Source of the DNA: a virus
Lineage: Duplodnaviria > Caudoviricetes
Reading direction: 5' to 3' (one strand)
Length of the DNA: 45,740 nt
Virus record (IMG/VR): IMGVR_UViG_3300037046_000301
Location: 1 to 45,740 of that record
Below the pieces are notes generated by a model. That model did not search any database. It was given only the letters and a program-made list of their open reading frames with translations, and was not told the DNA's origin. The translations under genes were made by a program, and so were the position numbers. Numbering within the stretch: the stretch's first letter is position 1; each line of letters opens with the position of its first letter. This document shows positions 14,957 through 31,618 of this stretch, one piece after another.

Positions 14957-15001
14957 GTATATTATTAATATCAAATTTCTTTTTATTAATTACATTTATG
15001 T

Positions 15002-15009
15002 TAAATTTG
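15002..15009 (+). promoter_or_regulatory. Bacteroidota -7 promoter box TAAATTTG
   Basis: Matches TAnnTTTG, 21 nt before ATG 15031. Confidence 0.5.
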
Positions 15010-15030
15010 CTTGGTTCTTTTCCATTGTTT

Positions 15031-15909
15031 ATGAAGAAAATATATTTCCTTTTAATATTTATGCTTGGTTCAGTTTTTTCATTTTCCCAGAAAATAGAAA
15101 ATGTACATGTTGAACAACAGGGAAAACAAGTTGTAATAAATTATGATATTACAGGAGCGCAAGCAGAACAAACGTTTGAAGTAAGTCTGTTATATTCACA
15201 GAATGGTTATGATTGGAAACAGGCAACTAAAGGATTAACCGGAGACATAGGAACAATTGCCCATACAGTGATGAAAAATACCATAACATGGGATGCTTTG
15301 CAGGATGTTAATAAGCTTGTTGGAACAGGGTTTATGTTTAAAGTAAAGGTTAATGTAAATAGTAGAAATATTAATATCAGTTCTTTTAAAGATAGCAGGG
15401 ATAACAAAATCTACAAAACGGTAAAAATTGGGAATCAAACTTGGATGGCAGAAAATCTTAACTATAAAACAAGCAGTGGAAGTTGGTGTTATAATGATTT
15501 TAGTAGCAATTGCCAAACATACGGTAGGTTATACAATTGGGAAACAGCCAAAACGGTTTGTCCTGATGGCTGGCATTTGGCCTCAGATGATGAATGGACA
15601 GAATTGATTGATTTTCTCGGTGGGCCAAGAATAGCTGGAGGAAAGATGAAACAAAATGGTACAACTTTCTGGAAAACCCCTAATAAAGGTGAGAAAAATG
15701 GTAGCGGATTTTTAGCTTTACCTGGGGGTGATCGCGACTATAATGGTAAATTCGGCAATATGGGTTACCATGCAAGTTTTTGGTCTTCTACAGAGGATTA
15801 TTCCATTGGCGCCTGGCTCAGACTTTTGTACTATGATGACACAAATGTACTCCGCTACAGTTATAATCTGGACTTCGGTTATAGTGTTCGTTGCGTTAAG
15901 GATAAATAG
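15031..15909 (+). CDS. Secreted FISUMP (Fibrobacter succinogenes major paralogous) domain protein
   Basis: Signal peptide MKKIYFLL...; DSRDNKIYKTVKIGNQTWMAENLNY, YGRLYNWE, CPDGWHL, GYSVRCVKD. Confidence 0.88.
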   Translation: MKKIYFLLIFMLGSVFSFSQKIENVHVEQQGKQVVINYDITGAQAEQTFEVSLLYSQNGYDWKQATKGLTGDIGTIAHTVMKNTITWDALQDVNKLVGTGFMFKVKVNVNSRNINISSFKDSRDNKIYKTVKIGNQTWMAENLNYKTSSGSWCYNDFSSNCQTYGRLYNWETAKTVCPDGWHLASDDEWTELIDFLGGPRIAGGKMKQNGTTFWKTPNKGEKNGSGFLALPGGDRDYNGKFGNMGYHASFWSSTEDYSIGAWLRLLYYDDTNVLRYSYNLDFGYSVRCVKDK

Positions 15910-16084
15910 TCAAATATTTGACATTTCGTCAAAATGTTAAATGGTTAGTTATAATTACGTGCAAGAAAGAAAGGAGATAAGGATCTTTTATTCCGGGAAT
16001 AAAAGGATGCGGCAATCTTGTGACAACAAACGTTCTATTTATCTCAGCCTTTGTTCAAAATTTTTAAATAAATATTCAATTAAT

Positions 16085-17794
16085 ATGAGTTCAATGACAT
16101 CCATATCGACTAGACTAATTTTTAGTGTAGGATTTTGTATTTTACTATTTGTCATAAATAGCTATTCTCAAACTACGATTGAAGGAATAAGTAATAAAGT
16201 TGATTTAAATATAACCAAAGATCCTCCAGTACTATTGTTATCGGATGGATCATTAAAATTTACAGACCAGAATGGCAATAATTGCATTGATGCAAATGAA
16301 ATGGTTAAGATTTCTTTTGAAGTAGAGAACAGGGGTAAAGGAGAGGCTTCAGGATTAACTTTAAACGTAAGTGAAACAGGCAATATTGGTGGGTTGTCAT
16401 TCGGAAAAATAGCATCGAAAGGCAATCTTTCAACTAGCACTAAGAAAACAATTGAAATACCAATCACTGGTGATATGAATTTAAAAACAGGTGTTGCCAA
16501 TTTCGTCATCAAACTTGATGAGGAAGGTGGATTCGGTTTAGATGAGATGCAAATGGAAGTAAAAACAATGGCTTTTGTCAATCCGGTTGTTAAAATTCCC
16601 GATTATACTATTACAAGCGAGATCGGAAATACTCTTAATAGAAAGAAGCCTTTCGATCTTCAGATTTTGATTCAAAATGTTGGAAAAGGAATTGCAGAAA
16701 GTGTTAGAATTGATATGAGTATTCCACAGAACGTATTATGTTTCTCAGGGAATGAGACTACTCAATTTGATAAGATTATTTCAGGTGAAACGCAAACCAT
16801 AGTATACAGCTTAATCGTGAACGAGAGATATTTAGCAAGCAGTATTCCCGTTGAATTCAAACTCTCTGAAAAATATGGCAAATATGCCGAGAATAAAACT
16901 ATAACCCTTGAACTGAACCAAGCGATGGCAGCATCAAAATTGATAGTAGAGAGTTCGGTTATTGCTGATAATACACTTATTTCTGAAGCCTATCTTGGTT
17001 CTGATGTGGACAAAAATATCCCTTTCAACAGCATGGACAAACCCAACACTTATGCACTTATTATTGGAAATGAAGATTATTATTCTTTTCAGTCCGGACT
17101 AAGTAGAGAGATCAATGTGGACTATGCAATGAATGATGCCAGAACGATTAAGGAATATTGTAGTAAAACGCTTGGTATTCCAGATAAGCAGATCATGTTG
17201 CTTACAAATGCAACGACAGGAAAAATGAACCAGGGAATTACATGGCTTAGTAATCTTGCTAAAGTTGACAATGGCAAGGCAGAATTGATTTTCTATTACT
17301 CCGGTCATGGTTTACCTGATGAAGTTACTAAAGAAGCATACCTGATTCCGGTTGATGTCAGCGGAAGCAACCTTACAGAAGGTATTAAACTTGCTGATGT
17401 ATATAGCAAACTGAGCGAGTATCCAGCGCAGAAAGTAACCGTATTTTTAGATGCCTGTTTCAGTGGTGGCGCCCGTAATCAGGGATTGATTGCACAGAAA
17501 AGTGTTAAAATAAAACCAAAAGAAAACCTGATTACCGGCAATATGGTTGTGTTTACATCAAGTACAGGAGAAGAATCGTCCGGCGTTTACCGGGAGAAAC
17601 AGCACGGATATATGACTTACTATCTTCTGAAAAAACTACAGGAAACCAAAGGGGACATTACCTATGGGGAATTGGCAAACTATATTACCGATAAAGTTAC
17701 CAAGGAAACAGCATTAAGTGGAAAAACTCAAACACCGCAGGTGATTTATAGTTCAGCTATTGAAAATACTTGGACAAACTGGATGATAAAATAA
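16085..17794 (+). CDS. Secreted caspase-family (peptidase C14) protein with N-terminal Ig-like domains
   Basis: YALIIGNEDY, YYSGHG and DACFSG catalytic His/Cys motifs; start uncertain (ORF open from 15941). Confidence 0.85.
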   Translation: MSSMTSISTRLIFSVGFCILLFVINSYSQTTIEGISNKVDLNITKDPPVLLLSDGSLKFTDQNGNNCIDANEMVKISFEVENRGKGEASGLTLNVSETGNIGGLSFGKIASKGNLSTSTKKTIEIPITGDMNLKTGVANFVIKLDEEGGFGLDEMQMEVKTMAFVNPVVKIPDYTITSEIGNTLNRKKPFDLQILIQNVGKGIAESVRIDMSIPQNVLCFSGNETTQFDKIISGETQTIVYSLIVNERYLASSIPVEFKLSEKYGKYAENKTITLELNQAMAASKLIVESSVIADNTLISEAYLGSDVDKNIPFNSMDKPNTYALIIGNEDYYSFQSGLSREINVDYAMNDARTIKEYCSKTLGIPDKQIMLLTNATTGKMNQGITWLSNLAKVDNGKAELIFYYSGHGLPDEVTKEAYLIPVDVSGSNLTEGIKLADVYSKLSEYPAQKVTVFLDACFSGGARNQGLIAQKSVKIKPKENLITGNMVVFTSSTGEESSGVYREKQHGYMTYYLLKKLQETKGDITYGELANYITDKVTKETALSGKTQTPQVIYSSAIENTWTNWMIK

Positions 17795-17855: not shown

Positions 17856-18791
17856 CTAAATTGAAATTGAAAATGGTAATGATTTAATATAGTTTTCCAT
17901 AAAATCAAAGTCTGGTTTGCCTGCGATATCAACAGGCAATTTTATTCTGGATTTATTCATCTTTCCAGTTTCCCATTTTCTGCCATAGTTAAACCGAAAT
18001 TTTTCTAACCGGATTAATGTTATTAGAAAGAATGCAATGTATTTGTTTAGTTTAAATTTTGAATATAGAACATTTACATCGTCACTTGCCCAGAAGGGAT
18101 TAGGTTGATAAAATGATTCCCCAACAGAACCATTATAATTCACAGTGATTGTATTGCCTTGATGTATTGGCTCTTGCCCAATAAAATCTCTATAACCATT
18201 ATTTGAATCTATTGCACCAATGAAGGGTGTGTTTCCAGGAATGAAATCTTCCTTTGTTAATCGTTTGCCCTTTTTTATGTCAAATAGTTCGTTGTAATTA
18301 AAGTATTTCCAATTACTAGTATTTAGATTAAGGGTTTTATTTTGTGCACTTTTTTTTGAAGGAATACTTGGTATTTGGATTTTTTCAACCCAAACAGGGA
18401 TTTCTGAAACACTTGGAATTAAAATATCTCCTAATGTTTTATTTGCTTGTCTACCGTAGCTATAACGATATTTGTTTGCTCGTATGCACAGACAATAAAA
18501 CAACTTTTGTTTTTCTGATAATTCTATTTTAGGGCGTAAACAAAATATATGATAGCTAGTATAAAAATCCGATGTCTGTAAAAAAGTTTCTAATACAGAC
18601 CCTCCAAGTGAAACAGTTATCAAGCCTGCTTTAAACGGCTCAACATCAATTAACTTTTCAACTTTTGCTGATACTCCGTTATTTTTGGCAGTTCGAGAAA
18701 TAAAATTTATACCTGTCTTATTTATAGACAATCTGTTTAGTTCAAATCCATTACCATAGGTAATGTCAAATATGTTTGACAATTTTTCCAT
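17856..18791 (-). CDS. Restriction-modification specificity (S) subunit, BcgI-beta-like
   Basis: Two repeated TRD halves (FISRTAKNNG..YSYGR; FIGAIDSNNG..FNYGR). Confidence 0.8.
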   Translation of the reverse strand: MEKLSNIFDITYGNGFELNRLSINKTGINFISRTAKNNGVSAKVEKLIDVEPFKAGLITVSLGGSVLETFLQTSDFYTSYHIFCLRPKIELSEKQKLFYCLCIRANKYRYSYGRQANKTLGDILIPSVSEIPVWVEKIQIPSIPSKKSAQNKTLNLNTSNWKYFNYNELFDIKKGKRLTKEDFIPGNTPFIGAIDSNNGYRDFIGQEPIHQGNTITVNYNGSVGESFYQPNPFWASDDVNVLYSKFKLNKYIAFFLITLIRLEKFRFNYGRKWETGKMNKSRIKLPVDIAGKPDFDFMENYIKSLPFSISI

Positions 18792-18793
18792 TT

Positions 18794-20605
18794 CTAATTA
18801 TTTAAAAATTGAAAAGCTATGTAGTTTTTGATGACATCAATAAAATTGTTTTCATTCATCTCCGAATAATCCGTTTCCATATATGCTTCAGCACACCATT
18901 CATCTTCAGCATTAACTTCTTTTATTACGCTATGACCTACAATTACTTCTTTGTTCAAATAAGCATTAACCCATTGCTTTTTTATCTCATGCCATTTTCC
19001 TTTTGCATCAATTCTGCCTTTGTTTTTAACTTTAACAAATCCATCGTCTTTCCAGTAACCAAACCAAGTTTTTTTACCTTTTGGATGTGGAATATGTGAA
19101 GTAAAAACCATTGTACAAGTAACAACCCCGACTTTTGAATTATGAAATAATTCGTCTGGCATTGACATAACAGCCTCTAAAGTATGATTTTCTAAAATTT
19201 TTGTTTTCCAACTTAGCATTTCTCCACTTTGTGCCAAAGCACAGCTCATTGGAACGATTGCAATGCACTTACCTTTCTTTTGAAGCATTTCAAGATTGTT
19301 CCATATAAAAGCAAACTCTTCTATATCTTCCTTCTTAATTGCATATGGAGGATTTAGTAAACCTACATTTGGTTTAAATTTATCTTTTATTTGTTTTGCT
19401 GTATCATCTTCAAAACAATCTCCAAGCATAATATTGCTTTTACCATCATTGTGAATAATCATATTAGATACAGCCAATGCGTAAATTTCATCTTGAAATT
19501 CAATACCGATAATTTGTTTCAATTTTATTTTATCAATTAGTTTCTTTTGACCATTCGCAAACGCAATCATTTTTTTCATTCCACTGATCAGGAAACCACA
19601 AGTTCCGCAGCAATTATCTAATAGGATACTGTCAACATTTAATTCAGCTAAATCGCAAAATAATTCTGTAATATGAGGGGGGGTTAGAACAATACCTAAT
19701 CCCTTATCATTATTAGCATACCTAAGAAACTCAATATAAAACTGTCCAAGCGTGTCAAAATATTTGTGCGTTTTTATAAATGAATTTACTTTTAAGTCAA
19801 TGTCAGAAATTAAATTTTCAAAAAAATGCTTGTTGGTTGTTAAAGTTGTATTTGAGTCAATAAAGGAATACGCTGTTTCCAATTTATTTATTTTGTCAAC
19901 AGGAATATTGGAATTTTTTAATTGCGTTTTAATTGTAAAAAAAATAGCTCCAGCCAAGTCTTTTGCTTTTATGTGTTTAGTGTAACTATTATGAAAAGCT
20001 ATATCTTGTAACGCAATCAAAATACCACTAATTAATAAACTTCTTTGAGATTCCTTTATCTTCTTTATGTGAAGAAGGTTGTTTAGTTCCTTTGTATAAG
20101 CCAATAAGTTTTCGTAATCCTGTTTGAATTTCCTCTCATCATTTATATATGCGTTGTAGTAATCATCAAAATTCAAAATCTTATTCTTGACGAATGAAAA
20201 TGGTTTATTGTCCTTTTTCAAATTCAAAAACTGAGAAATTCTAAACTCGGATATTTTTTCTCCACTAACTGCAATAGCAATTACATCATACTCTTTACTT
20301 AAAAAGGAAGCATATAATAATACTCCATCAACAGCATATTCAGAATACTTATCACGAGTTTTCGATTCGTGTTTTTTAAAGTCTGCTTTACATTCAATAA
20401 CAATAATAAGATCGCTGTATTTTTCTGACTGAATAATAAATTCCGGATATCCTTTGCTACCTCCTTTTTTAGATGCATTTTTTAATAGCTTATCAATTTT
20501 AGGATTATCGCATTGTTGTTCATAAACATTAACCCCTTTTTTATAATATCCGAGTTTGGTAAGTGTTTCCCGGACAATCTTTTCAGTTTTCCTTTCGTTC
20601 GCCAT
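18794..20605 (-). CDS. Fused endonuclease/N6-adenine methyltransferase (type IIB, BcgI-alpha-like)
   Basis: N-terminal YPEF..IECK nuclease motif; DNCCGTCGF motif I; NPPY motif IV. Confidence 0.85.
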   Translation of the reverse strand: MANERKTEKIVRETLTKLGYYKKGVNVYEQQCDNPKIDKLLKNASKKGGSKGYPEFIIQSEKYSDLIIVIECKADFKKHESKTRDKYSEYAVDGVLLYASFLSKEYDVIAIAVSGEKISEFRISQFLNLKKDNKPFSFVKNKILNFDDYYNAYINDERKFKQDYENLLAYTKELNNLLHIKKIKESQRSLLISGILIALQDIAFHNSYTKHIKAKDLAGAIFFTIKTQLKNSNIPVDKINKLETAYSFIDSNTTLTTNKHFFENLISDIDLKVNSFIKTHKYFDTLGQFYIEFLRYANNDKGLGIVLTPPHITELFCDLAELNVDSILLDNCCGTCGFLISGMKKMIAFANGQKKLIDKIKLKQIIGIEFQDEIYALAVSNMIIHNDGKSNIMLGDCFEDDTAKQIKDKFKPNVGLLNPPYAIKKEDIEEFAFIWNNLEMLQKKGKCIAIVPMSCALAQSGEMLSWKTKILENHTLEAVMSMPDELFHNSKVGVVTCTMVFTSHIPHPKGKKTWFGYWKDDGFVKVKNKGRIDAKGKWHEIKKQWVNAYLNKEVIVGHSVIKEVNAEDEWCAEAYMETDYSEMNENNFIDVIKNYIAFQFLNN

Positions 20606-20619
20606 AATGCAGGTAGTAT

Positions 20620-20943
20620 TTAAAAGTTAAAGCTTCCTTGCTTTATTTTTATTGATTTGTAATACTTTGCTTTTTCTTCTGCCAACTGAAATACTGTTTC
20701 AGGGCATTTGTATTTGTAACAATCTTCCGCAAATTTCTCGCTGAAGTATTGCTTCTTTATATCAGCGACATCAACTTTAAGCGCCTTGGCAAGTAGTTGT
20801 AATTTTTCTTCTTTCAATTCCTTTTTCCCATTTTCAACCTTACTTATGCCCCCACTGTCAAGCCCTATTTTAGCTGCAAGTTCAGTTTGATTTAGCCCCT
20901 TTTCAGTTCTAAGCCGCCGTATGTAATCTCCGAAACTTTCCAT
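20620..20943 (-). CDS. XRE-family HTH regulator (possible RM controller)
   Basis: FGDYIRRLRTEKGLNQTELAAKIG..ISKVENG; start at ATG 20943. Confidence 0.85.
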   Translation of the reverse strand: MESFGDYIRRLRTEKGLNQTELAAKIGLDSGGISKVENGKKELKEEKLQLLAKALKVDVADIKKQYFSEKFAEDCYKYKCPETVFQLAEEKAKYYKSIKIKQGSFNF

Positions 20944-21222
20944 TTTTAACCTTGTCAATTTAACCTTGGTAATTTTTGACAAATATAAATATTATTTTGA
21001 ATAGGGTGGTTGAAAATTTTTAGCTCCTTTTGGTCTCGGAGCAATCACCCGTGCGATGGTGCAACCAAATAAACGAAAAGCGATTCAAGTTAATTAATTG
21101 CTTACACAAGAGGTTGTACCAAGCAAATGTATAAATAAAATTTACTTATGGAGTTGAAAAATATATTATTATTGATATTTGATGAACAAAAAAAAGGGAG
21201 AGACCAGAGATTAGCTGATTTA

Positions 21223-22173
21223 TTATTGATATGTGAACCATTCTTTAATTAAGTTATTTTCATATTTTGTGAGCAAGACCTCTTTGTTTCGCTGTGCTCT
21301 TGATTTTGCATCGATTAAAATTTGTAAATAATTTGTATTTGTTCTATAAGCTCTATTAAAATTATTATTTTGAAATTCTTTCCACTTTCCATTTGTCTCA
21401 ATAATATATCTAATTTTTACATCTTGTGGAATTGTTTTAATTGTGCCATTGAGAAAATTAGCATTATTGTCTCTAATATAAGAGAATGATTTATTTAAAA
21501 GAGAATCAAAACAGAATGCAATTATTTTCGACTGTATAATAAAACTTTCTAAGTCTGTTAATAAAGAATCTGCGTTAGAATTATGAGCAGATTTATGTCT
21601 ATTGTTTGCAAAATTGCTAAAAATTTGGCTTGGATTTAATATTGAACAATTAATATTAGAACTTAGGGTTTGAATGCTATTCCAACCTCCATCAACATTA
21701 AATGTTTTTAAAAACTCTGAAATATCTGTAGAATTTAAGTTTGATTTATCCCAACCCATTGAAAATTCAGAAAACTCATAGACAGATTTCTTCGTGCTTG
21801 AAACGAATTCAGTTTCATTTTGAATAAATGTTATGTAATCTTCTGAATTCCTTTTTAATAATTCAGCTCTACTACTTATTCCTTTTAAAGCATAAAATGT
21901 TACAGCTTCTTTTAGCTTTTCTGGCAATGCATTAAAAGCACAACTTATCGAACTTATTTCTTTTAAGACTTCGCCAGTTCTTCTTTTTATGAAATCTTCA
22001 AGAATTGTAAATCCAATAATTGACATTCCATTTCTTAACATTCTAACTTTTTCGTTATGTAAGGTTTCAGTTAGTGCTTTGGAATTTAGTTTTATATCAT
22101 CTATATTTTCAGGATAGATAATACTACTGAATGTACTTATTCGTTCAATAAAAAAGTTCTTTGCAGTAGCCAT
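21223..22173 (-). CDS. HEPN-domain protein (putative RNase)
   Basis: Rx4H motif RHKSAH and N-terminal LEDFIK helix; coupled to DUF262 gene. Confidence 0.65.
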   Translation of the reverse strand: MATAKNFFIERISTFSSIIYPENIDDIKLNSKALTETLHNEKVRMLRNGMSIIGFTILEDFIKRRTGEVLKEISSISCAFNALPEKLKEAVTFYALKGISSRAELLKRNSEDYITFIQNETEFVSSTKKSVYEFSEFSMGWDKSNLNSTDISEFLKTFNVDGGWNSIQTLSSNINCSILNPSQIFSNFANNRHKSAHNSNADSLLTDLESFIIQSKIIAFCFDSLLNKSFSYIRDNNANFLNGTIKTIPQDVKIRYIIETNGKWKEFQNNNFNRAYRTNTNYLQILIDAKSRAQRNKEVLLTKYENNLIKEWFTYQ

Positions 22174-23240
22174 TATTTTAAGATTTCATCTAATAAATTA
22201 ATCATTGTCCCTATTCTATAATTTACTTGTTTAATATTTGAAGTAAATTGACGCATAGAAACTTGAAATTCCTTATCTTGAAAATACTGGTTTTCAAATT
22301 TGTCAGAAATTTGTTTTTTTCTTTCTATGATAATATTTGATTTGTCTAAAAAAAATGATAATCCAACTGTTTGAACATCAAAAATCCCTTGAATTATTTC
22401 ATTCCTTCCATCGGGTCTTTTAAATGCTCTATCTCCCCAAATTGTTTCACATAATTCAATAGTTTGATTGAACATATATTTGTATTTATCTATATTTAAA
22501 TCTTTACTACGATAATTCATTTCCATAAAATTATCCATAGCGATTTTCATATTACCATTGAAATTATTCCAAGTGTCTCTTAAAGTAAAAAATCGCAAGA
22601 CATATTCAACATCCAACATTTCTTTGTAAATTTTTGACTTTTCTCTTTCCCTTTCTGTTTCTAAATTAAATTGTTTTCTGAAAATGTTGTTTTCTGATAG
22701 CTCAACAAGTAAATCATTGAGTGTTCCTTCAAAAGAAGCATTTCTGATTTCTTGTGGTAATAATTTATCACCACCAGTGTTAAGCCTATTAAAAACTTCA
22801 TATTTTAATAAACTATCCGATTGTTTTAATAAAGTGATAACTCTTATATAAGGTCTAATTTTTAAAGCGTTATTTAATGGCGATGGAAGTTGTTGAAAAT
22901 TTAACCCTTCGATTTCAACAAACTTTTCTAAGTTTACTAGCCTCTCTTTAAGTATAATAAAATTATAAATTGCTGTTATTCTTTGTTTGCCATCAATAAC
23001 AGAATATGACCCATATTCGTCTTCTGCTAAATATATTGGTGGTACAGGAATATTCAATAGAAAAGATTCAATAAGAGCAGATTGTTTAACTTTATTCCAT
23101 CTTTCCCTTCTTTGATACTTTGGTTTAATGTTGATAGCCCCACCTTTAACCATATTTGCAATTGCTTCCAATGAAAGGTCGGAAGATTGGAATACCAGTC
23201 TGTTTTGTGCTAATAAAAATTTCTCAATAATGTTGTCCAT
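22173..23240 (-). CDS. DUF262 (GmrSD N-terminal/ParB-like) protein
   Basis: PKYQRRERW, LIESFLLNIPVPPIY, IDGKQR, FNRLNTGG motifs. Confidence 0.9.
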   Translation of the reverse strand: MDNIIEKFLLAQNRLVFQSSDLSLEAIANMVKGGAINIKPKYQRRERWNKVKQSALIESFLLNIPVPPIYLAEDEYGSYSVIDGKQRITAIYNFIILKERLVNLEKFVEIEGLNFQQLPSPLNNALKIRPYIRVITLLKQSDSLLKYEVFNRLNTGGDKLLPQEIRNASFEGTLNDLLVELSENNIFRKQFNLETEREREKSKIYKEMLDVEYVLRFFTLRDTWNNFNGNMKIAMDNFMEMNYRSKDLNIDKYKYMFNQTIELCETIWGDRAFKRPDGRNEIIQGIFDVQTVGLSFFLDKSNIIIERKKQISDKFENQYFQDKEFQVSMRQFTSNIKQVNYRIGTMINLLDEILK

Positions 23241-23510: not shown

Positions 23511-23544
23511 AAAAAGCCTCAATCGGTCGCAGACCGATTGAGGC
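23511..23544 (-). terminator. Intrinsic terminator
   Basis: GCCTCAATCGGTC stem followed by T-run on minus strand, after the 23561 stop. Confidence 0.85.
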
Positions 23545-23560
23545 AGTTAAGCTGAGTGAT

Positions 23561-23980
23561 TTAAAACTGAATCTTCGCTTCCGTTGAAGCCAATCCATCA
23601 TCAATGGAATTCTTCAATACATTGATGATCTTCTCAATGGCATCTGATTGAGAAGTTAAAAACTGGTTTCCTTCCTGATCCTGGATCGTGATTCGGGTGG
23701 TGTGTTCTTCCCGCTTCAGGTTGAAGGAAGCCAATTTCATCTTCGCTTCCAGGAAACGTTCCCGTTTTGCAATCAGATCGTTTAAATCCGAAACCTTCTG
23801 AATCTTCTGCTCGATGTTAAGCTCGGGCTTTTGTACTTCCGGCTTAACTTCGGGAAGGACTTCCGGTTTAACTTCAGGAACGACCGGATTCTCTTTGGTC
23901 GGTTTACGGTCAACAATTGCAAGGTCACGGCCGTTTTTTCCATTCTTTCCAACTGTTTTAACTTCTTTTACTTCATTCAT
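23561..23980 (-). CDS. Hypothetical protein with PEVK-like repeats
   Basis: 139 aa, VPEVKPEVLPEVKPEVQKPE; preceded by leader motif. Confidence 0.75.
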   Translation of the reverse strand: MNEVKEVKTVGKNGKNGRDLAIVDRKPTKENPVVPEVKPEVLPEVKPEVQKPELNIEQKIQKVSDLNDLIAKRERFLEAKMKLASFNLKREEHTTRITIQDQEGNQFLTSQSDAIEKIINVLKNSIDDGLASTEAKIQF

Positions 23981-23986
23981 TGTTTT

Positions 23987-24027
23987 TGCTGCTGCCTTGC
24001 AGACTTATTTTGGCATCAAGCTCGCCG
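23987..24027 (-). ncRNA. Pseudoknot leader motif copy A
   Basis: GGCG-AGCTTGA-TGCC-AAAATAAGT-CTGC-AAGGCA-GCAG-CA, 6 nt before ATG 23980. Confidence 0.75.
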
Positions 24028-24292
24028 GGTTAAAAAAATTTATGGCAATCCATTACCGGATTGAAAATTTTTGAACAAGCCTTCAGGTCAGGTTTTTGGA
24101 AGTTTTGATAAAATCTGAATGAACCCGGAGGGACTTCGGAGCTTTCTGATGGTTCTTGTTTTGCTTTAAGCGACGAAGTGGCTTAGAGAGAAATATTTTC
24201 AATGCAGGTACCTTTGCCCAGAAATTTGAGTAACCAAGTGGTAGGGGGTTTTCTTTGGTTCTTTCTTTTGTTAACAGATGAAAAGAAAGAAC
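24028..24292 (+). promoter_or_regulatory. Putative ssDNA (Frpo-like) promoter foldback 1
   Basis: Arms 24028-24081 pair with 24180-24235; TACCTTTG at 24209-24216; close repeat of 26462-26698. Confidence 0.65.
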
Positions 24293-24316
24293 ATTATCAT
24301 TCGGGCAGTTCCGAAC

Positions 24317-24343
24317 AAAAAAAGGGGGCTTTCGCCCCCTTTT
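24317..24343 (-). terminator. Intrinsic (possibly bidirectional) terminator
   Basis: AAAAAAAGGGGGC-TTTC-GCCCCCTTTT at radC stop. Confidence 0.8.
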
Positions 24344-24800
24344 ATGAAAGATTTCCTTCATCAGCGAAGGAATAGTAAGCCTCTGAACCGACAATCAGAT
24401 GATCAACGATTGGAAGATCCAGGAAGTCACCCGCTGCTTTCAATTTACGGGTGAGTTTAATGTCAGCATCTGAAGGTTGCAGATTTCCTGAAGGATGGTT
24501 ATGTAAAAGGATAATACTGCAAGCATTGCCCTTTAAGGCAACCTGGAAGATCATTTTAGGATCGGCAACCGTACCTGAAACCCCGCCTATTGAAACTGTG
24601 TGAAAGCCGAGCATTTTATTTGCCCGGCTTAATAAGAGCATGAGAAAAGATTCCCGGTAATCAATGGGTTCAGGCCAGATGCTCAATGCGATATCATAAG
24701 CATCGCGCGAAGAAGTGATCTTTCTCATTTCGCTGTGTCGCAGTTTCATTGAATACTGGACTTTGATTTCAGCGAAGGAATTATTGAATAAATTATTCAT
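24342..24800 (-). CDS. radC: RadC-like JAB domain protein
   Basis: E..LLLSRANK..SIGGVSGTVADP..HNHPSGNLQPSDAD..DHLIV; start set at ATG 24800 because the longer ORF runs through a terminator and another gene. Confidence 0.9.
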   Translation of the reverse strand: MNNLFNNSFAEIKVQYSMKLRHSEMRKITSSRDAYDIALSIWPEPIDYRESFLMLLLSRANKMLGFHTVSIGGVSGTVADPKMIFQVALKGNACSIILLHNHPSGNLQPSDADIKLTRKLKAAGDFLDLPIVDHLIVGSEAYYSFADEGNLS

Positions 24801-24806
24801 TATCTT

Positions 24807-24847
24807 TGCCCATGCCTTTGGGACTTTTAAAGGTTTCAAGCGCACCA
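24807..24847 (-). ncRNA. Pseudoknot leader motif copy D
   Basis: GGT-GCGCTTGAA-ACC-TTTAAAAGT-CCCA-AAGGCA-TGGG-CA, 6 nt before ATG 24800. Confidence 0.7.
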
Positions 24848-24861
24848 GGTTAATTAATTTG

Positions 24862-24895
24862 AAAAAAAAAAGCCCCCGATCCCTGGGGGCTTTTT
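24862..24895 (-). terminator. Intrinsic bidirectional terminator
   Basis: A-run, GCCCCC..GGGGGC stem, T-run. Confidence 0.8.
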
Positions 24896-24897
24896 GA

Positions 24898-25125
24898 TTA
24901 ATAAGGATTTCCGACTCCGTGAAAGGTATCTTCATCCGCTTTGTCTGAAAGAAACTGCCGAAAATCAGATTCACCGCAAGGGGAACAATAAGCCTTTTGA
25001 TTACTCGGCCAATAAAAAATGTCATCGCCTTTTTTGATCGGACAATGACATTGAGCGCAGGTACTGGTGAACTTAGCAGTGATCTGTCGTGGATCTCCTG
25101 CATAGGTGGTTGAATAGCGTCTCAT
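24898..25125 (-). CDS. Small zinc-finger-like protein
   Basis: 75 aa with CAQC and CSPC; ATGA overlap with upstream gene. Confidence 0.75.
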   Translation of the reverse strand: MRRYSTTYAGDPRQITAKFTSTCAQCHCPIKKGDDIFYWPSNQKAYCSPCGESDFRQFLSDKADEDTFHGVGNPY

Positions 25126-25499
25126 ACTGCGCTCCTTTCTGTGACTTGTTTGTCACTGAACAGGTAGCAAATCGGCCAGTATTTGTACTGATCTTCAGAT
25201 TCTGTCGGGGATTCATCGCCCATCTTGTCGGCACTTTCATCCAGCCGACTGACATCTTTGGGCGTACCCCAGACCAAAAAGGCTTTGCTGTCTTTTATGA
25301 TGGACTTTCCGAGTTTCTTCCATTCATGGAAGGTTTTAAACTCGGAATGACCGGCTTCTTTTCTGTAAAGCTCGATCAGTCCATCATTGACAGTGGAAGC
25401 ATGAATCTGTCCCATTTGCATGAGCAGTTTTACAGTGGCAGACAAACCCTTCAGCTTGTCGCGGTTCTCCAGGTAATGAGAAATTTTTGAATCATTCAT
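25122..25499 (-). CDS. ArdC N-terminal-like ssDNA-binding protein
   Basis: FKTFHEWKKLGKSIIKDSKAFLVWG..YLFSDKQV pattern typical of ArdC-N. Confidence 0.7.
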   Translation of the reverse strand: MNDSKISHYLENRDKLKGLSATVKLLMQMGQIHASTVNDGLIELYRKEAGHSEFKTFHEWKKLGKSIIKDSKAFLVWGTPKDVSRLDESADKMGDESPTESEDQYKYWPICYLFSDKQVTERSAV

Positions 25500-25505
25500 T
25501 TTAAA

Positions 25506-25546
25506 TGCTGCTGCCTTGCAGACTTATATTGGCCTCAAGCACGCCA
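25506..25546 (-). ncRNA. Pseudoknot leader motif copy B
   Basis: TGGC-GTGCTTGAG-GCCA-ATATAAGT-CTGC-AAGGCA-GCAG-CA, 6 nt before ATG 25499. Confidence 0.75.
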
Positions 25547-25562
25547 GGTTATAAAATTTCAA

Positions 25563-25892
25563 TTAAGCATTGACTGCAAGCTGGGAGTGGTATTCAAATT
25601 CCCAGTGAATGTGTTTTATCGGCTGTGATTGAAAAACTGTGATCCAGACTTCCTGAAGATAAAACTCAGAGCAGTCAGAATAAGGAACCAGTTTGGAAAA
25701 GCACCAACCAATTTTCCGGGGTGGTTTTCCGCTGGGTTGATCAATGTAAATTGAAGAAGCCTTTCCATAAGTTTTTTGAAGGCTTCGGAACAATTTTCCC
25801 AGGTCATTGGTGAATGTTTCGTATGCTTCCTGGTCAGCGAAGCGCCATCCTTTAGAAGCATTGACGAAAGATTCATGAATCCAGATATTCAT
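25563..25892 (-). CDS. Hypothetical protein
   Basis: Start moved to ATG 25892 (MNIWIHES), after leader motif. Confidence 0.7.
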   Translation of the reverse strand: MNIWIHESFVNASKGWRFADQEAYETFTNDLGKLFRSLQKTYGKASSIYIDQPSGKPPRKIGWCFSKLVPYSDCSEFYLQEVWITVFQSQPIKHIHWEFEYHSQLAVNA

Positions 25893-25900
25893 AAAAAAAG

Positions 25901-25941
25901 TGCCCATGCCTTTGGGACTTGTTTTGGCAACAGGCACGCCA
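25901..25941 (-). ncRNA. Pseudoknot leader motif copy C
   Basis: TGGCG-TGCCTGT-TGCCA-AAACAAGT-CCCA-AAGGCA-TGGG-CA, 8 nt before ATG 25892. Confidence 0.75.
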
Positions 25942-25950
25942 GTGAATTAA

Positions 25951-26361
25951 TTAATCTTCGTTTGGAAACAGGATGGTAATTGCCGGTGATGGATCATCAA
26001 TGTCAACCGGACCAACCAGGGCTTTTAAGGTAATGAGCCGTTGAAATTCCCCTTCTTCTGAATGCTCATTATCGAGCCAGGGCTCTTCTTTCGACAATTG
26101 ACAGATGAATTTGAAAAGCAATTCAGCGCCTGGTGTTTTCCTTGCGCTGACTGCAAACATCCAGAGGATATCCCAGAGCCGTCCGGCTTCATCCTGGTAC
26201 CCGGTCATTTCTTTGGGAACTTCAACATAGCGATCCCAAACTGTCCGATTCATGTAAACCGGATAGCGGATACCAGCGGATCGGCTTGTTTTCTGATCAA
26301 TTTCAACCTGGAAGCCATCAGAAATAGCATCCTTTCGTGTGTAAGCATAAATAAGGTCCAT
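25951..26361 (-). CDS. DUF6573-like protein
   Basis: IYAYTRKDAISDG..QDEAGRLWDILWM..ITILFPNED pattern. Confidence 0.6.
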   Translation of the reverse strand: MDLIYAYTRKDAISDGFQVEIDQKTSRSAGIRYPVYMNRTVWDRYVEVPKEMTGYQDEAGRLWDILWMFAVSARKTPGAELLFKFICQLSKEEPWLDNEHSEEGEFQRLITLKALVGPVDIDDPSPAITILFPNED

Positions 26362-26367
26362 TGAAAA

Positions 26368-26430
26368 TGCCGCTGCCCTGCGGACTTATTTTGGCTTCCT
26401 GAAGTTTATTCAGAAATTGTCTGGCACGCC
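26368..26430 (-). ncRNA. Pseudoknot leader motif copy E (extra hairpin in loop 1)
   Basis: GGC-GTGCCAGA-[TTTCTGAA TAAAC TTCAGGAA]-GCC-AAAATAAGT-CCGC-AGGGCA-GCGG-CA, 6 nt before ATG 26361. Confidence 0.75.
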
Positions 26431-26435
26431 GATTA

Positions 26436-26698
26436 TTACTGCAATTTTTGCTTCGGAACAATACCGGATTGAAAATTTTCGAACAAGCCTTCAGGTCAGA
26501 TTTTTGGCAGTTTTGATAAAATGTGAATGAACCCGGAGGGACTGAGCCGCTTTCAGATAATTCCCTTCCGCTTTAAGCGGTGAAGTGGCTTAGAGAGAAA
26601 TAGTTTCAATGCAGGTAACTTTGCTAAAAATTGTAGTAAGTAGTGTGGGGTGGGTTTTCTTTGGTTCTTTCTTTTGTTGACGGATGAAAAGAAAGAAC
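26436..26698 (+). promoter_or_regulatory. Putative ssDNA (Frpo-like) promoter foldback 2
   Basis: TTACTGCAATTTTTGC (26436-26451) pairs with GCTAAAAATTGTAGTAA (26623-26639); TAACTTTG at 26616-26623 lies opposite a mismatch bubble. Confidence 0.65.
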
Positions 26699-26792
26699 GA
26701 CAATCCATCAAGCGGAGCTTGATACCAGGCGGTATAGCTGAAGTATCATTCCCTTCGGGGAATGATGAAGTATTTTTCTGACCTGTACGAAC

Positions 26793-26826
26793 AAAAAAAG
26801 GGAAGCCGGCGTCAGCCGGCTTCCCT
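26793..26826 (-). terminator. Intrinsic terminator
   Basis: AGGGAAGCCGGC stem followed by T7 on minus strand. Confidence 0.85.
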
Positions 26827-26844
26827 ATGCTTCGTATCAGCATC

Positions 26845-27342
26845 TTAGAATGGAGCTTCTTCGAAGGGATTACTGAACAATTCAGCTTCTTTTGGTCTTT
26901 CAGGTTCAGGAATACCTGCTTCCCTGCGCCTTCTTTTGAAGTTTGAATTAGGGTAAGGATCCTTTGCAGTTTCATTTGCCTGGGAAACTTCAACAGCAGG
27001 AATTTCTTCCTTTGATTTGCTTACCTGATTATTCGAGTACAGGTAGATGACAGGAAAAAACTTTTTCTGATTTCCGTCAGCACCTGTGGACATGGTGGGT
27101 TTGCCCCAGAACAGGTAAGCCTTTGCTTTGGCCTTTACTGTGAATCCTTCCTCTTTCCACTGACGGGCTGACTTAAACTCGACATTTTCTTTTCCATTCG
27201 AGTAAGTCGACATTAAAGCGGCTTTCATGTTTTGAAAACTTCCTTTAGCTATTTCAGGTTTCAAAATCTTCGAAAGCTCGGAAAGTTTTTTAACGTTTTC
27301 AGGGTGAGAAGCTAATTCAGGACGAAATTTTGTTGTATTCAT
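26845..27342 (-). CDS. ArdC N-terminal-like ssDNA-binding protein with acidic PF tail
   Basis: FKSARQWKEEGFTVKAKAKAYLFWGKP..YLYSNNQV; ends FEEAPF. Confidence 0.7.
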   Translation of the reverse strand: MNTTKFRPELASHPENVKKLSELSKILKPEIAKGSFQNMKAALMSTYSNGKENVEFKSARQWKEEGFTVKAKAKAYLFWGKPTMSTGADGNQKKFFPVIYLYSNNQVSKSKEEIPAVEVSQANETAKDPYPNSNFKRRRREAGIPEPERPKEAELFSNPFEEAPF

Positions 27343-27348
27343 TTTATA

Positions 27349-27391
27349 CGCCGGTGGCTCGCCGGACTTTTTTTAGGTATTAGCCACACCA
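27349..27391 (-). ncRNA. Pseudoknot leader motif copy F
   Basis: GGTG-TGGCTAA-TACC-TAAAAAAAGT-CCGG-CGAGCCA-CCGG-CG, 6 nt before ATG 27342; compensatory changes in all three helices. Confidence 0.75.
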
Positions 27392-27405
27392 GTTAAAATG
27401 TTTAA

Positions 27406-27537
27406 TTAATTTGAATAATTTTCTGAAAATTGATTAAATTCAAAATTGAGAGATTCGGCATCAAGCGAATCAGCGTAACCCGGATAAAAAACTTCATCCA
27501 GGAAAGCAATAAAAATTTCATATAAGGAAGAATTCAT
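27406..27537 (-). CDS. Small acidic protein (43 aa, not in ORF track)
   Basis: MNSSLYEIFIAFLDEVFYPGYADSLDAESLNFEFNQFSENYSN; ATG 6 nt after leader motif. Confidence 0.7.
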   Translation of the reverse strand: MNSSLYEIFIAFLDEVFYPGYADSLDAESLNFEFNQFSENYSN

Positions 27538-27543
27538 TGTGTG

Positions 27544-27584
27544 TGCCGCTGCCCTGCGGACTTATATCAGCGTCTGGCTCGCCA
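27544..27584 (-). ncRNA. Pseudoknot leader motif copy G
   Basis: TGGCG-AGCCAGA-CGCTG-ATATAAGT-CCGC-AGGGCA-GCGG-CA, 6 nt before ATG 27537. Confidence 0.75.
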
Positions 27585-27860
27585 GTTAATTAAATTTTTG
27601 CTGATAAATGCGAAAAGGCATTGAGCAGACCCGATTCATGTCAAGTATTAGGGTCATCCCGCATTTGCGGGATGAAAGAACCCAACGGGCGCTCAGTACT
27701 GAAACCCATCCTATAAATGATCAAAGGTTTCAGGACTGAGCGTACTTTACTTTTCGGGGATGCGTAAATAACTTTGCAAATAATTTGAGTAACTAACGGT
27801 GGGCTGGTTTTCTTTTTTGCTTCTTTATTCTTTGGGCAATCATGAAAAGAAAAAAGAAGC
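27584..27860 (+). promoter_or_regulatory. Putative ssDNA (Frpo-like) promoter foldback 3 (divergent interior)
   Basis: 27584-27601 pairs with 27776-27794; TAACTTTG at 27769-27776; internal hairpins 27654-27674 and 27690-27742; similar trailing TTCTTT/AAAGAA hairpin. Confidence 0.55.
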
Positions 27861-28190
27861 CGCCGGAGGCACAAGGCATTCTCTTTTATTATTTTATACC
27901 AGGCTGTATATTAGTTAAATGGCAAATTTTCACAGGAAATTTGCCACCCTACCACGTAGTGTATGCCTGCCGTGCCCTATCGAAAAAGCAATAAAAAAAG
28001 GCAATAATAGAGGATATATGAAACGATCAGGGGCTGATTTATGGTTTGTATCAATTGCTTATTGCCTTGTATAATTGCCCTCTAAAGATGTTCTGAAAGG
28101 TTTATGAATAAAGGGAACAAGCCCAAACCCAGTCCTCATGTGCGGGGGATCTGTGGGCAGTCCTCAATAGCATCGGAGATACCTATTATT

Positions 28191-28495
28191 GCATTAAGGA
28201 TTGCAACGTCATCCTTTTATAGAATTGCCTGGTGCGTTGCTGACGGACGTAATGGAAGAAAGAGGAATGAATGAACGAGATGTGCAGGGAAGACTTCGGC
28301 CTGTGTGAAGGAAAAGAAATACTCAGTCCTTTAGCGAAGCGGGGGACTGTGTATTTGTGCAGAACAAAGTCGCTGCATGACGAGAGAAAGAATGACGATG
28401 AATGTAATGAAGTAAGGAAGCAGCAACCAGGATTGGGGAGCAGTATAAAAGATACAGTGTAAAGCCTGACCCCCGCCAAAGCGGGGAAAATGCCC
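28191..28495 (-). repeat. Structured repeat copy 2 (Flavo-1-like, expanded)
   Basis: Begins right after terminase stop: GGGCATT..GTCAGGCTTTAC..[long insert]..GTTGCAATCCTTAATGC. Confidence 0.5.
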
Positions 28496-30172
28496 TTATA
28501 TTCTTGCAGGTACAAAAACTCCGGGCGTCCTTGTGATTCGGAAAAACCTGTACCAAACAATCTTATCGGCTGCATCCGTACTGTGTGTAGCTTCTTCCGG
28601 TGGTATGTTAGAACCCGTATTCTCACTGGATTTATCCTTCTTAAACTTATTGTCCCTTTCAATTACCCTGGTATTCTGCGCAGCGATCAGAAAGTATTTA
28701 CAATTATTGCCATTGATTCGGATAACAGGAAACAAAGGATTATTCTCCTTCAGGATATTGCCCCACAACAAATACTTCTCATGAACCGGCGGCTCTTTGC
28801 CCCTGTATTTCTGAACAACTACATTCCAGCCCTTTTGCTCGAGGCGGTTAATTGCCTGAGTGTTGTAAGTATCTGAGGAATTAGCCAGGCGTTCATCCCC
28901 ATACTTATCCCTCCAGAAAATAACAGTACGGTCATTATGAAAATTATAATAGCCGACAAATTCATCTATCAGTGAATCAATCATGACAGTGGCTTTCTCC
29001 GGTTTGACAAAGAATTCCTTGAGGAAATTAAAAGATGTATCCTTGCGGACTTTGCAACTCTCCTGGCAAATGAGCATGAATGAAATATTTGAACCCCAGT
29101 CAATGACCATTTCCAAAGGTTGATTGGTATCACAATCAGAATCAAATCTGCTGTCAGGCCTACCCAAACGGGTAAAATCCCAGTCACTGTCTTCCGCCAG
29201 GTCACGAATAAAACCATTATCAAAAGATTCATAGTACACATGCTTATCCGGGTCAATGTTATAATAGCAGTCCTCAACTTTATCAGGGATCCAGTTCATG
29301 ATTTCAATCATGAAGATAAGGTTGGTCAGCTTCTGATACTCCCGTTTGATGTATTCAAGCCCGACATTATCCAGGTTATCAAAGGCATTTGAAAGCGTAA
29401 AAAGCAAACCATCTTTGGATACAAAAGGGGCAATTTGTTTTTTTATCCTGGCAATTTCATTCCACTGTGCAGCAAATTCACGATGATCCGTAATTTCAAG
29501 GAGCTGCAATTGCAGCTTCACGATCCGGTTCCAGGTATCAAAAATCCTGATGCCGGCTTCAGTTTCGTAATAGTTGCCAAACTCTAACAGGTATCTGCCG
29601 GCAGCAGAATAAGGCATGGATGAAACAAAGTGAAATCCATGATGAAATGAAACCGGGTGGTTACCCTTTACACCCCATTTGTCAAGGTTTCCCCTGTTGG
29701 TAGGTGAAACTTCCTGATCATAGCGCTCTTTGTCAATGGTCAAAAACTCATCCCCTATTTCATAATCTGTGTTGGGTCCTCTGGATGACCCTGCCCGATC
29801 CTGGGAAAGTAATAAGTAGCCGGTACCATTGAGAAAACTAACATAATTATCATGCTTTAGGATTCTTTCGAATGGATCCCTGAAGTGATCGGGAGGCTTC
29901 CGGTTAATGACATAATGGACATTCTTCACATAACCAAAATAAGATTCAAGAAACTTGAAAGTAGAAGGTAAAGTCCGGGTGAGCAACTGACCAAAAGTTT
30001 TACCAGTGATGGAAGTGACCGACTGGGGCATGTAGGTATTGATCAGGTGAACCTTATGGCCTATAATGGCAGACTTGCCCTGTCCACGTCCTGCGACCGT
30101 AACTTCACACCTGGGATGCAAAATAACAGGGGTATTCTGGGCAGGATTATAATTGACTAATTTAAGTCCCAT
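28496..30172 (-). CDS. terL: Terminase large subunit
   Basis: Walker A AGRGQGKS, Walker B YEIGDE, nuclease IDWG and THSTDAAD. Confidence 0.85.
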   Translation of the reverse strand: MGLKLVNYNPAQNTPVILHPRCEVTVAGRGQGKSAIIGHKVHLINTYMPQSVTSITGKTFGQLLTRTLPSTFKFLESYFGYVKNVHYVINRKPPDHFRDPFERILKHDNYVSFLNGTGYLLLSQDRAGSSRGPNTDYEIGDEFLTIDKERYDQEVSPTNRGNLDKWGVKGNHPVSFHHGFHFVSSMPYSAAGRYLLEFGNYYETEAGIRIFDTWNRIVKLQLQLLEITDHREFAAQWNEIARIKKQIAPFVSKDGLLFTLSNAFDNLDNVGLEYIKREYQKLTNLIFMIEIMNWIPDKVEDCYYNIDPDKHVYYESFDNGFIRDLAEDSDWDFTRLGRPDSRFDSDCDTNQPLEMVIDWGSNISFMLICQESCKVRKDTSFNFLKEFFVKPEKATVMIDSLIDEFVGYYNFHNDRTVIFWRDKYGDERLANSSDTYNTQAINRLEQKGWNVVVQKYRGKEPPVHEKYLLWGNILKENNPLFPVIRINGNNCKYFLIAAQNTRVIERDNKFKKDKSSENTGSNIPPEEATHSTDAADKIVWYRFFRITRTPGVFVPARI

Positions 30173-30761: not shown

Positions 30762-31041
30762 AAATTTTGGCTAATACTTTTGAATCTTCAAAGAATTTAA
30801 GCATTTGCATTTGTGCAGGGTGACTGCCCTGGGAAGCAGATTTCATGATGGACGTCCTCACCTTAATTTCACCCGTATTAACACCTGTTTTAAAAGCATT
30901 ATAAATATCCGAACCGGGTATGGCAAGTTGCTCAAGAAAAACATCTTCAGGAATTTCAGCATTGACCGAAATCTCCTGCGGCGTAAATCCAAACTCAGCC
31001 ATTTGCAGAATACAATCCTGTATCGCCTTCTCCAATTTCAT
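30754..31041 (-). CDS. Small HTH-like packaging-module protein
   Basis: MAEFGFTPQEIS..ASQGSHPAQ resembles small-terminase-type HTH. Confidence 0.5.
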   Translation of the reverse strand: MKLEKAIQDCILQMAEFGFTPQEISVNAEIPEDVFLEQLAIPGSDIYNAFKTGVNTGEIKVRTSIMKSASQGSHPAQMQMLKFFEDSKVLAKIYE

Positions 31042-31618
31042 CTAAAATCCATTTTTTATCAAATTCATAAACTTCCGGAAATGGTAAAATTACTCCCCTT
31101 TCAATACGGGGATTTTGTGTCATGTTTGCGCTTCCTATTACGGATATCTTCCAGGACTCATTCCCGATCAGTGTAACCTTTGCATGGCAGGCCTTAAACT
31201 TATATTTGAAATTTGCAATAAGCATTTGCAAAGGTTTGGGGTTTCTATTCTTAATCCTGGGATCTATAAGGAATCCGATTGAACGGATGATCTTTTCTTC
31301 ATATTTCTGGACAATAGACCGGATTGCAGCTTCAGATATTGACCAGGTACTGATCAGAACATCGGCAGGACCGGTCTGCTTCAGGATATAAAGCAGCAGG
31401 TCATGGGCGCTGTACCTTCCCGATGTAATGAAATGAACTGCCCGGTCTTTTGGGATCTCGCCGATGTGTTTTTTAAGTATCTCATTGGCAAAACCAACAA
31501 ATTCATGCTTTGTCGTATCCTGATTGAAACTCTCCACACTGAGCGGATGGGGTTCATCATCGGGCAATTCAATGATGATGTCCTCAATCGTTACCAGCAC
31601 GATGTGTTTGAATAGCAA
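30995..31618 (-). CDS. Phospholipase D-like (HKD-variant) nuclease domain protein
   Basis: HAKVTLI..GSANMT motif; start uncertain. Confidence 0.7.
   Translation of the reverse strand: MLFKHIVLVTIEDIIIELPDDEPHPLSVESFNQDTTKHEFVGFANEILKKHIGEIPKDRAVHFITSGRYSAHDLLLYILKQTGPADVLISTWSISEAAIRSIVQKYEEKIIRSIGFLIDPRIKNRNPKPLQMLIANFKYKFKACHAKVTLIGNESWKISVIGSANMTQNPRIERGVILPFPEVYEFDKKWILDEIGEGDTGLYSANG

Follow-up and report, generated by a model that had tools for sequence, protein, structure and literature searches.

Predicted single-stranded DNA promoters in a cassette island at the inferred cos end of a Bacteroidales phage

Organization of the island

The island described here, in which DNA foldbacks predicted to act as single-stranded DNA (ssDNA) promoters alternate with small genes, occupies positions 23511-27900 of the virus record IMGVR_UViG_3300037046_000301, the whole 45.7-kb stretch of which is hereafter named the window. 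Family and protein searches revealed tape measure, S49 protease, portal and terminase genes, and the source phage was assigned to the temperate siphophages of Bacteroidales. Its structural and terminase genes share 22-30% identity with those of Helgolandviridae and Duneviridae. The large terminase gene terL (28496..30172, - strand, 558 aa) was identified by tblastn to records annotated as terminase large subunit and by one UniRef name, while a terL profile gave no match in the PDB; the portal was identified via that of phage Leef_1. A preliminary description of this DNA had placed the island between terL and portal. The position is correct, although the slot between terL and the gene preceding the portal gene measures 13.6 kb and holds, from terL inward, the island, a DUF262 pair, a type IIG restriction-modification (RM) system and a caspase-like gene.

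The island is composed of three DNA foldbacks (B1 to B3, given on the + strand), seven copies of a 50-nt gene leader and four intrinsic terminators, with genes, leaders and terminators all on the - strand. From terL, the first unit comprises B3 (27585..27795), a leader (motif A, 27539..27590), a 43-aa open reading frame (ORF; 27406..27537), a degenerate leader (27345..27400), an ArdC-N-like gene (26845..27342) and a terminator (26799..26826). The second starts with B2 (26430..26700) and a leader with an inserted hairpin (26363..26433), and continues with a DUF6573 gene (25951..26361), a 109-aa ORF (25563..25892), a second ArdC-N-like gene (25122..25499) and a zinc finger gene (24898..25125), with further leaders at 25896..25947 and 25501..25552 and a terminator at 24867..24895. 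The third contains a leader (24802..24853) preceding radC (24342..24800) and a terminator (24320..24343), and the fourth B1 (24027..24295), a leader (23982..24033), a 139-aa ORF (23561..23980) and the terminator closing the island (23516..23544). The seven leaders align with one another, and the first has two covarying stems and possibly a kissing loop. Repeat analysis also delineated a T/A-rich hairpin with a repeated tract, mostly phage-borne and named motif C (27795..27860), with further copies at 26645-26700 and 24245-24295.

Among the repeat families, the leader family D2 has 6 copies of 45 nt, D1 has 4 copies of 75 nt and D5 has 3 copies, and the foldback repeat D3 extends over 105 nt with 89% identity. 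The terminator scan counted 17 terminator-like sites against 6.3 ± 2.5 in shuffled sequences; sigma-70 promoters were not enriched (12 against 9.5), and that scan was uninformative. The preliminary description had proposed a layout of foldback, one or several motif-gene pairs and terminator, repeated three times. Its repeats and foldbacks are real, as indicated by the repeat families, the seven aligned leaders and foldback z-scores of -3.2 to -5.5, but its count is not, since three foldbacks stand against four terminators and the RadC unit has only a leader behind a terminator.

The gene products were likewise announced, as RadC, two ArdC-N-like proteins and a zinc finger. RadC was recovered as a RadC/JAB-domain protein (E 6e-37), whereas the 125-aa ArdC-N-like protein (E 0.0013) and the 75-aa C4 zinc-finger-like protein (E 1.6e-4; relatives in phages and in integrative and conjugative elements, ICEs) both fall below the cut-off. 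The 165-aa ArdC-N-like protein, which lacks a protease domain, has no Pfam match by itself and was recognized by alignment with ArdC-N proteins. An ArdC-N profile, which included two full-length ArdC N-termini, matched ArdC in the PDB at E 1.5e-12. The likeness to ArdC of R388 (PDB 6I89; PMC7213743) and to the ArdC-N and RadC domains of polyvalent proteins (PMC5512222) concerns the N-terminal domain: the two window proteins, of 125 and 165 aa, are stand-alone, divergent N-domains without the metallopeptidase domain that completes the definition of ArdC. Among the other products, the DUF6573 protein (E 2e-19) shares 53-55% identity with ICE copies, the 43-aa ORF has relatives in phages and in one ICE, and the 139-aa ORF belongs to a family of 11 members among leader-headed genes. 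The 109-aa ORF has no family match and overlaps a short piece resembling B1 and B2 (repeat D9). ArdC-N is described as binding ssDNA and RadC as a predicted nucleic-acid enzyme (PMC5512222), and ArdC as countering restriction (PMC7213743). The island genes are likely to be anti-defense genes, as judged from their families. RadC is co-oriented in 49 of 51 loci and ArdC-N in 23 of 24. Families with predicted anti-defense or ssDNA-related functions are therefore enriched in a single orientation, a trait of conjugative leading regions.

The inferred genome end and the foldbacks

Relatives were collected as 241 terL loci (best 80 kept per scan), reduced to 203 non-redundant rows including the window. 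A motif after terL, reading CATAT(A/T)TCCT, about 30 nt and then TAG GGCGRG, was found in 114 of the 169 non-redundant loci with enough sequence, with two matches elsewhere. Some contigs of relatives break at this motif: 12 of the 41 contigs ending at most 700 nt from terL match an end-at-TAG pattern, 11 of them exactly and one (L111) ending 5 nt later, and in addition to the 11 exact cases the L068 contig ends in TAG plus adapter-like letters. Among the 82 locus starts examined, two (L511 and L525) begin 11 nt after TAG with 100% identity, and L457 begins about 12 nt after it in a weak alignment. The removal of 3' overhangs by end repair is described as leaving a signature of 3' cohesive ends (cos) in contig ends (PMC5557969). 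Because some relatives end at TAG and others start 11 nt later, we infer an 11-nt 3' cos, corresponding to 27966..27976 (- strand) in the window (hidden Markov model match, E 5.7e-10). The contig ends of relatives thus draw a fixed, staggered cut with a short uncovered gap between the strand termini. The packaged DNA most probably has one of its physical ends at the island slot and on the island side would begin at 27965, with the first -7 box 190 nt inside.

The conserved CATAT(A/T)TCCT element (28010..28020, - strand) lies on the terL side, some 35 nt from the cut, and is a candidate terminase-binding site. The HK97 small terminase is reported to bind 15-29 bp from its cut (PMC11331095). By analogy, the position of the element weakly suggests that the island is the last-packaged and first-ejected end. 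Among the closest described parallels are the temperate 3' cos siphophages, namely Leef_1 of Helgolandviridae and Duneviridae (PMC8776804), and HK97 packaging (PMC11331095), with 22-30% identity in terL and portal, a similar gene order, a 3' cos and, in Leef_1, small genes between genome start and portal (PMC8776804). They differ in being distant, and here cos follows terL; no foldback is on record for Leef_1, where none was looked for. Leef_1 itself is called a 3' cos phage (PMC8776804), and its record ends in a similar motif, matched by eye, 83 nt after terL. A relaxase considered for Duneviridae does not figure in that source (PMC8776804). One sequence-pattern search returned mostly unrelated contigs. 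Next to the end site, a non-coding stretch of about 480 nt (28020-28496) runs from terL to cos and is more conserved in related contigs than terL. Just upstream of terS, an endonuclease-like ORF (30995-31618; phrog_16945, E 3e-16) is a candidate helper in cos cleavage.

The three foldback regions, folded as + strand DNA, gave z-scores of -3.9, -3.2 and -5.5, and none of 200 shuffles folded as well. In B3, the 3' arm carries a -33-like TTTA (27746-27749), a 19-nt spacer and the -7 box TAACTTTG (27769-27776). The -7 boxes of B2 (TAACTTTG, 26616-26623) and B1 (TACCTTTG, 24209-24216) are each followed by motif C. The same arrangement recurs in 30 phage units, in which the template strand folds back and the 3' arm reads TT(G/T)A, about 20 nt and TAnCTT(T/C)G. 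The -33 consensus and the box spacing applied here are those we take to be valid for Bacteroidota. TAnnTTTG is described as the -7 box of the Bacteroidota housekeeping sigma factor (PMC9723704). Pairing values are 0.22-0.27 at positions 1-5 of the box, compared with 0.6-0.9 for the stems on either side, and the box therefore forms a largely unpaired bubble. A -7 box lies on the non-template arm (+ strand) of all three window foldbacks, as in the 30 phage units and 36 ICE units, and a scan for the TAnnTTTG consensus alone gave no match on the - (gene) strand of the island. The template strand folds better than the other strand in 26 of the 30 phage units, and own arms outpair foreign arms in 30/30.

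The foldbacks are also tied to the genome end. A box with a strong partner arm at most 900 nt from the end site was found in 21 of 84 long-slot loci, in 1 of 15 short-slot loci and in 0.8% of 654 control windows, and in 27 of the 30 phage units the box lies 188-407 nt from the end. In most phages having it, motif C is located some 100 or 205 nt away from the cos end, at times with no foldback, and ICE loci gave only one match. A profile of the B1/B2 type matched only the window, and the exact 19-mer nothing in viral contigs.

We predict from this geometry that the foldbacks are ssDNA promoters of the Frpo type, in which a foldback serves as promoter (PMC9849209, PMC11541004, PMC12672017). As in Frpo/ssi classes 1-3 of F, ColIb-P9 and pESBL (PMC9849209, PMC12672017, PMC11541004), an imperfect foldback of about 200 nt stands upstream of small establishment genes, forms a large stem-loop on the template strand and rebuilds promoter boxes in its stem; the ICE copies, moreover, lie on the relaxase strand. 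The differences are the Bacteroidota -7 box TAnnTTTG in place of sigma-70 boxes, a separate covarying leader, and a phage cos end without relaxase. The likeness is one of layout, and activity is predicted. The EGeRS1 leaders of pLS20 (PMC8708921) likewise consist of structured DNA that is repeated ahead of ardC and further variable operons. They are described there as promoter-less folds of 400-600 bp on the non-template strand, whereas boxes are present here and the ICE polarity fits ssDNA transcription.

The same boxes could instead form an ordinary duplex promoter that fires towards cos and yields a small RNA (motif C) or an RNA antisense to terL, with the foldback being secondary. We hold this to be very unlikely. 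On the + strand, the spacing between the -33 and -7 boxes is correct, and motif C follows them in phages and hardly ever in ICEs; such a promoter would nevertheless leave unexplained the complementary arm 150 nt away, the covariation and the transferred-strand layout of ICEs, and would leave the genes without a promoter. The defense operon adjoining the island has a conventional forward -7 box at 23427.

Gene leaders and homologues in conjugative elements

In phage terL loci, the leader profile gave 117 matches in 57 loci, of which 115 are on the gene strand, and zero matches in 1.56 Mb upstream of the terL end. An ATG occurs 7-9 nt past the second stem in 99 of the 109 parsed copies. The genes headed by the leader encode RadC (24), full ArdC (15), DnaJ-like proteins (11), the 139-aa family (11), a methyltransferase and a SymE-like protein. 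Covariation was assessed on 73 of the 115 copies, selected with a pattern of fixed loops and lengths and excluding duplicates and four longer rows. In these, every cell of both stems is paired (100%), and two-sided changes number 104, compared with 28 in shuffles. It is this covariation that supports the structure, as the leader by itself folds no better than shuffles. G-U pairs point to the mRNA strand as its folded form. A kissing-loop helix is a tentative addition: two of its pairs are invariant, one varies one-sidedly and one pairs in 21/73 copies. No Rfam family matched the leader or the island above the gathering threshold. Leader-like matches also occur directly 5' of a RecT gene in unrelated phages whose terminases are of other types (L344 9995, L346 9995, L351 10000). 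The leader could serve as a handle for mining Bacteroidales anti-defense candidates.

In the 109 loci whose slot is closed or that extend at least 5 kb downstream, RadC occurs in 40, ArdC or ArdC-N in 27, either of these in 50 and the leader in 37; the preliminary description had proposed such a survey of related Bacteroidota prophages. Relatives also encode full ArdC (E 6e-48). In one chromosome (G002), all 22 leader matches fall in four prophage slots. A cultured lysogen, Draconibacterium aestuarii Z1-6 (locus L021), also has a leader in the slot, and no cos-proximal foldback was detected in it. Contigs from four other studies carry the island at 90-99%; some of them reach across the end site or extend in the direction of the terL stop, and terL itself is not covered at 85%. 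The close relatives of the island thus look phage-borne.

In genome scans, the leader model matched 54 of 151 genomes of one Bacteroidales family and, strongly, 10 of 151 across the order; in a phylum-wide sample of 150 genomes besides the centre, none had the leader. Among the 148 listed matches assessed for their neighbors (40 more were not listed and 2 were left out), 50 have a MOBP relaxase at most 70 kb away, and 49 of these 50 are on the relaxase strand (26 of 27 relaxase loci). Seventeen are close to terL, in 7 cases to a distant homologue at 27-33 kb, and 81 are near neither, mostly on short contigs. The same foldback is present in 36 of 52 distinct ICE leaders and precedes genes of the same families; one ICE was examined gene by gene. 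The relaxase is described as normally entering last (PMC11541004). Since the leader is co-oriented with it, the transferred strand would be the template. This holds for the ICE homologues (49/50) and not for the window, which is a phage. The ICE strand bias is the best evidence that the element is a real ssDNA promoter. Together with the box geometry and the folding bias, it upholds the original proposal of foldback promoters with + strand polarity and leading-region-like content. Between two foldback cassettes of one ICE (L298-L299, G082:C31), a prokaryotic Argonaute lies within a type I RM locus. A single leader match located 1.6 kb from a short relaxase (L353/G353:C4 140652) suggests that small mobilisable elements may also carry the cassette.

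The prophage, or its circle, might itself be transferred as ssDNA by a co-resident ICE, the island being a true conjugative leading region; mobilization in trans had also been put forward in the preliminary description. Hosts often carry ICEs with the same cassettes, and the CATATATCCTG element resembles what we take to be a MOBP nick site. A search with the cos profile came up empty in 367 kb of ICE DNA, relaxase-upstream regions included (best E 1.2), so the motif is not an ICE oriT. The site also has the behavior of a staggered cut through both strands, nicking of the gene strand at this point would send the wrong strand across, and the chromosome with four such prophages gave no match to the PF03432 relaxase or TraG, the two families searched genome-wide. 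Complete relatives gave none in the same search. We consider this transfer highly improbable. As had been noted, no relaxase or type IV secretion system family is visible among the 55 window ORFs. No oriT with a cognate relaxase adjoins the island, on a genome-wide search covering PF03432 and TraG. Because it has neither, the island works like a conjugative leading region without being a member. Clustered small genes in one orientation, with ArdC-family, methyltransferase and toxin-antitoxin genes in relatives, recall the anti-defense islands of plasmid leading regions (PMC11541004). Here, the island is bounded by cos and not oriT, the virion contains double-stranded DNA (dsDNA), with the anti-defense genes of the window being predicted.

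A recent, intact capture from an ICE, also envisaged initially, is not supported. No near-identical island was found in 401 Bacteroidales genomes (best match 69-70% over 310 nt of radC), and plasmid and phage collections gave just short radC-like or spurious matches. Island proteins share 44-60% identity with ICE copies, and the nearest ICE foldback is 57-58% identical for B1 and B2 and 70% for B3. The foldback tree contains 6 changes between phages and ICEs (at least 4) and a 17-member phage-only clade (support 100/98), in which own arms outpair foreign arms in 14/17 (permutation p <1e-4). The cassettes come from a pool common to phages and ICEs.

Repeated pickup is a different matter: cassettes could be taken from ICEs time and again into a tolerant slot by leader recombination, their expression in the phage depending on read-through from the terminase operon or supercoil-driven hairpin extrusion, or not occurring at all. 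The exchanges on the foldback tree (at least 4-6, with one phage/ICE pair 89% alike), 13-15 gains or losses on the terL tree, the RM and other defense cargo gathered in the slot and the many relatives without foldbacks all fit. The compensatory pairing persisting in the phage-only clade, the lack of a near-identical ICE copy, the four strong terminators blocking read-through and the fixed position beside cos speak against it, and we regard it as unlikely.

Possible mechanism and neighboring genes

The preliminary description had listed exposure of the + strand on entry or by resection among several routes, and this one gains support because the island lies at the inferred 3' cos end. Our preferred reading, held tentatively and with a little less than even confidence, is that ICE-derived ssDNA promoters are reused at the 3' cos end of the phage and fired by 5'-to-3' resection after entry. 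Starting from the observed location and geometry, a presumed ssDNA phase would proceed as follows. The cassette array would begin about 100 nt inside the 3' cohesive end of the packaged DNA, and the + strand, which is the gene template and would have its 3' end at this terminus, would survive 5' resection by host or phage. Once folded, it would bring TTG/TAnnTTTG onto the non-template arm, the -7 box being melted in advance, and housekeeping RNA polymerase would transcribe leader and gene. In the duplex, the consensus scan shows no forward -7 box, and the promoters are predicted to act only on ssDNA. The 3' cohesive tips would survive resection, and circularization and gap filling would later switch the promoters off. 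The products (ssDNA-binding ArdC-N proteins and RadC, and in relatives full ArdC, methyltransferase and DnaJ-like proteins) would protect the incoming DNA, and the leader RNA element may set translation or stability and be a swap point between cassettes.

In a bolder form, which seems possible and rather doubtful to us, a programmed ssDNA phase at the first-entering end, produced by resection or one-strand entry, would be the timer of an ICE-type anti-defense island before circularization; the island would then be a true leading region, with a new class of Bacteroidota ssDNA promoters and a new pseudoknotted leader RNA.

The foldbacks might alternatively act as ssDNA promoters or primer sites while the phage replicates (by rolling circle, by strand displacement or in lagging-strand gaps) or once the prophage is induced, and not at entry. 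Geometry and covariation fit equally well, Frpo is described as also priming DNA synthesis (PMC12672017), and these phages have a large primase-like protein, with no polymerase found in the ORFs scanned. By itself, replication leaves the tight spacing to the genome end unexplained, and the cargo looks like entry-stage genes; we judge it fairly improbable.

Several observations weigh against firing by resection after entry. We know of no dsDNA phage that presents kilobases of its DNA as single strands when it enters. Scanning of ORFs identified no exonuclease in the window, in the closest complete relative (G001, 73% terL) or in the provirus G005. B1 lies 3.7 kb from the end, and the -33 element is weak in B1 and B2. 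As for the end itself, the cos profile has no match in Leef_1, and in one relative (L460) the contig start falls 4 nt past TAG. The family can do without the leader, given that it is in just 37 of the 109 informative loci and 22 of 65 closed slots are empty (<700 nt). Many relatives fill the slot with the same genes and no foldback, G001 and G005 among them, with ArdC-N or RadC and neither leader nor foldback. The changes in cassette presence on the terL tree arise partly via truncated loci. A duplex promoter firing towards cos could explain the conservation of the boxes, and pLS20 EGeRS1 indicates that structured leaders need not be ssDNA promoters (PMC8708921).

The literature searched, with subscription journals and bioRxiv supplements outside its scope, yielded no ssDNA promoters in tailed phages or Bacteroidota, and the island would represent a new, Bacteroidota-type family of Frpo-like cassettes at a phage cos end. 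Promoters of this kind have been described from enterobacterial conjugative plasmids, where entry as ssDNA explains them. A Bacteroidota version common to ICEs and phages would extend the mechanism to another phylum and sigma factor. With its fixed place at the cos end, a single 300-nt element would make testable both the fate of linear phage ends from injection to circularization and how temperate phages time their anti-defense genes.

The remainder of the slot holds a defense block and further genes. The block with 26-31% GC (17856-23240) encodes a DUF262 protein with an unannotated 316-aa partner, a control-protein-like helix-turn-helix protein and the type IIG RM system, which has a separate specificity subunit. 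On the opposite strand, 14998-17794 contains a Fib_succ_major lipoprotein-like gene and a CARDB-caspase gene. In G001 (46.4 kb, terminal repeats), in which no integrase turned up among the ORFs scanned, ArdC-N is followed in the slot by SNF2 helicase, PAPS reductase and ParB-like genes (L245-L247).

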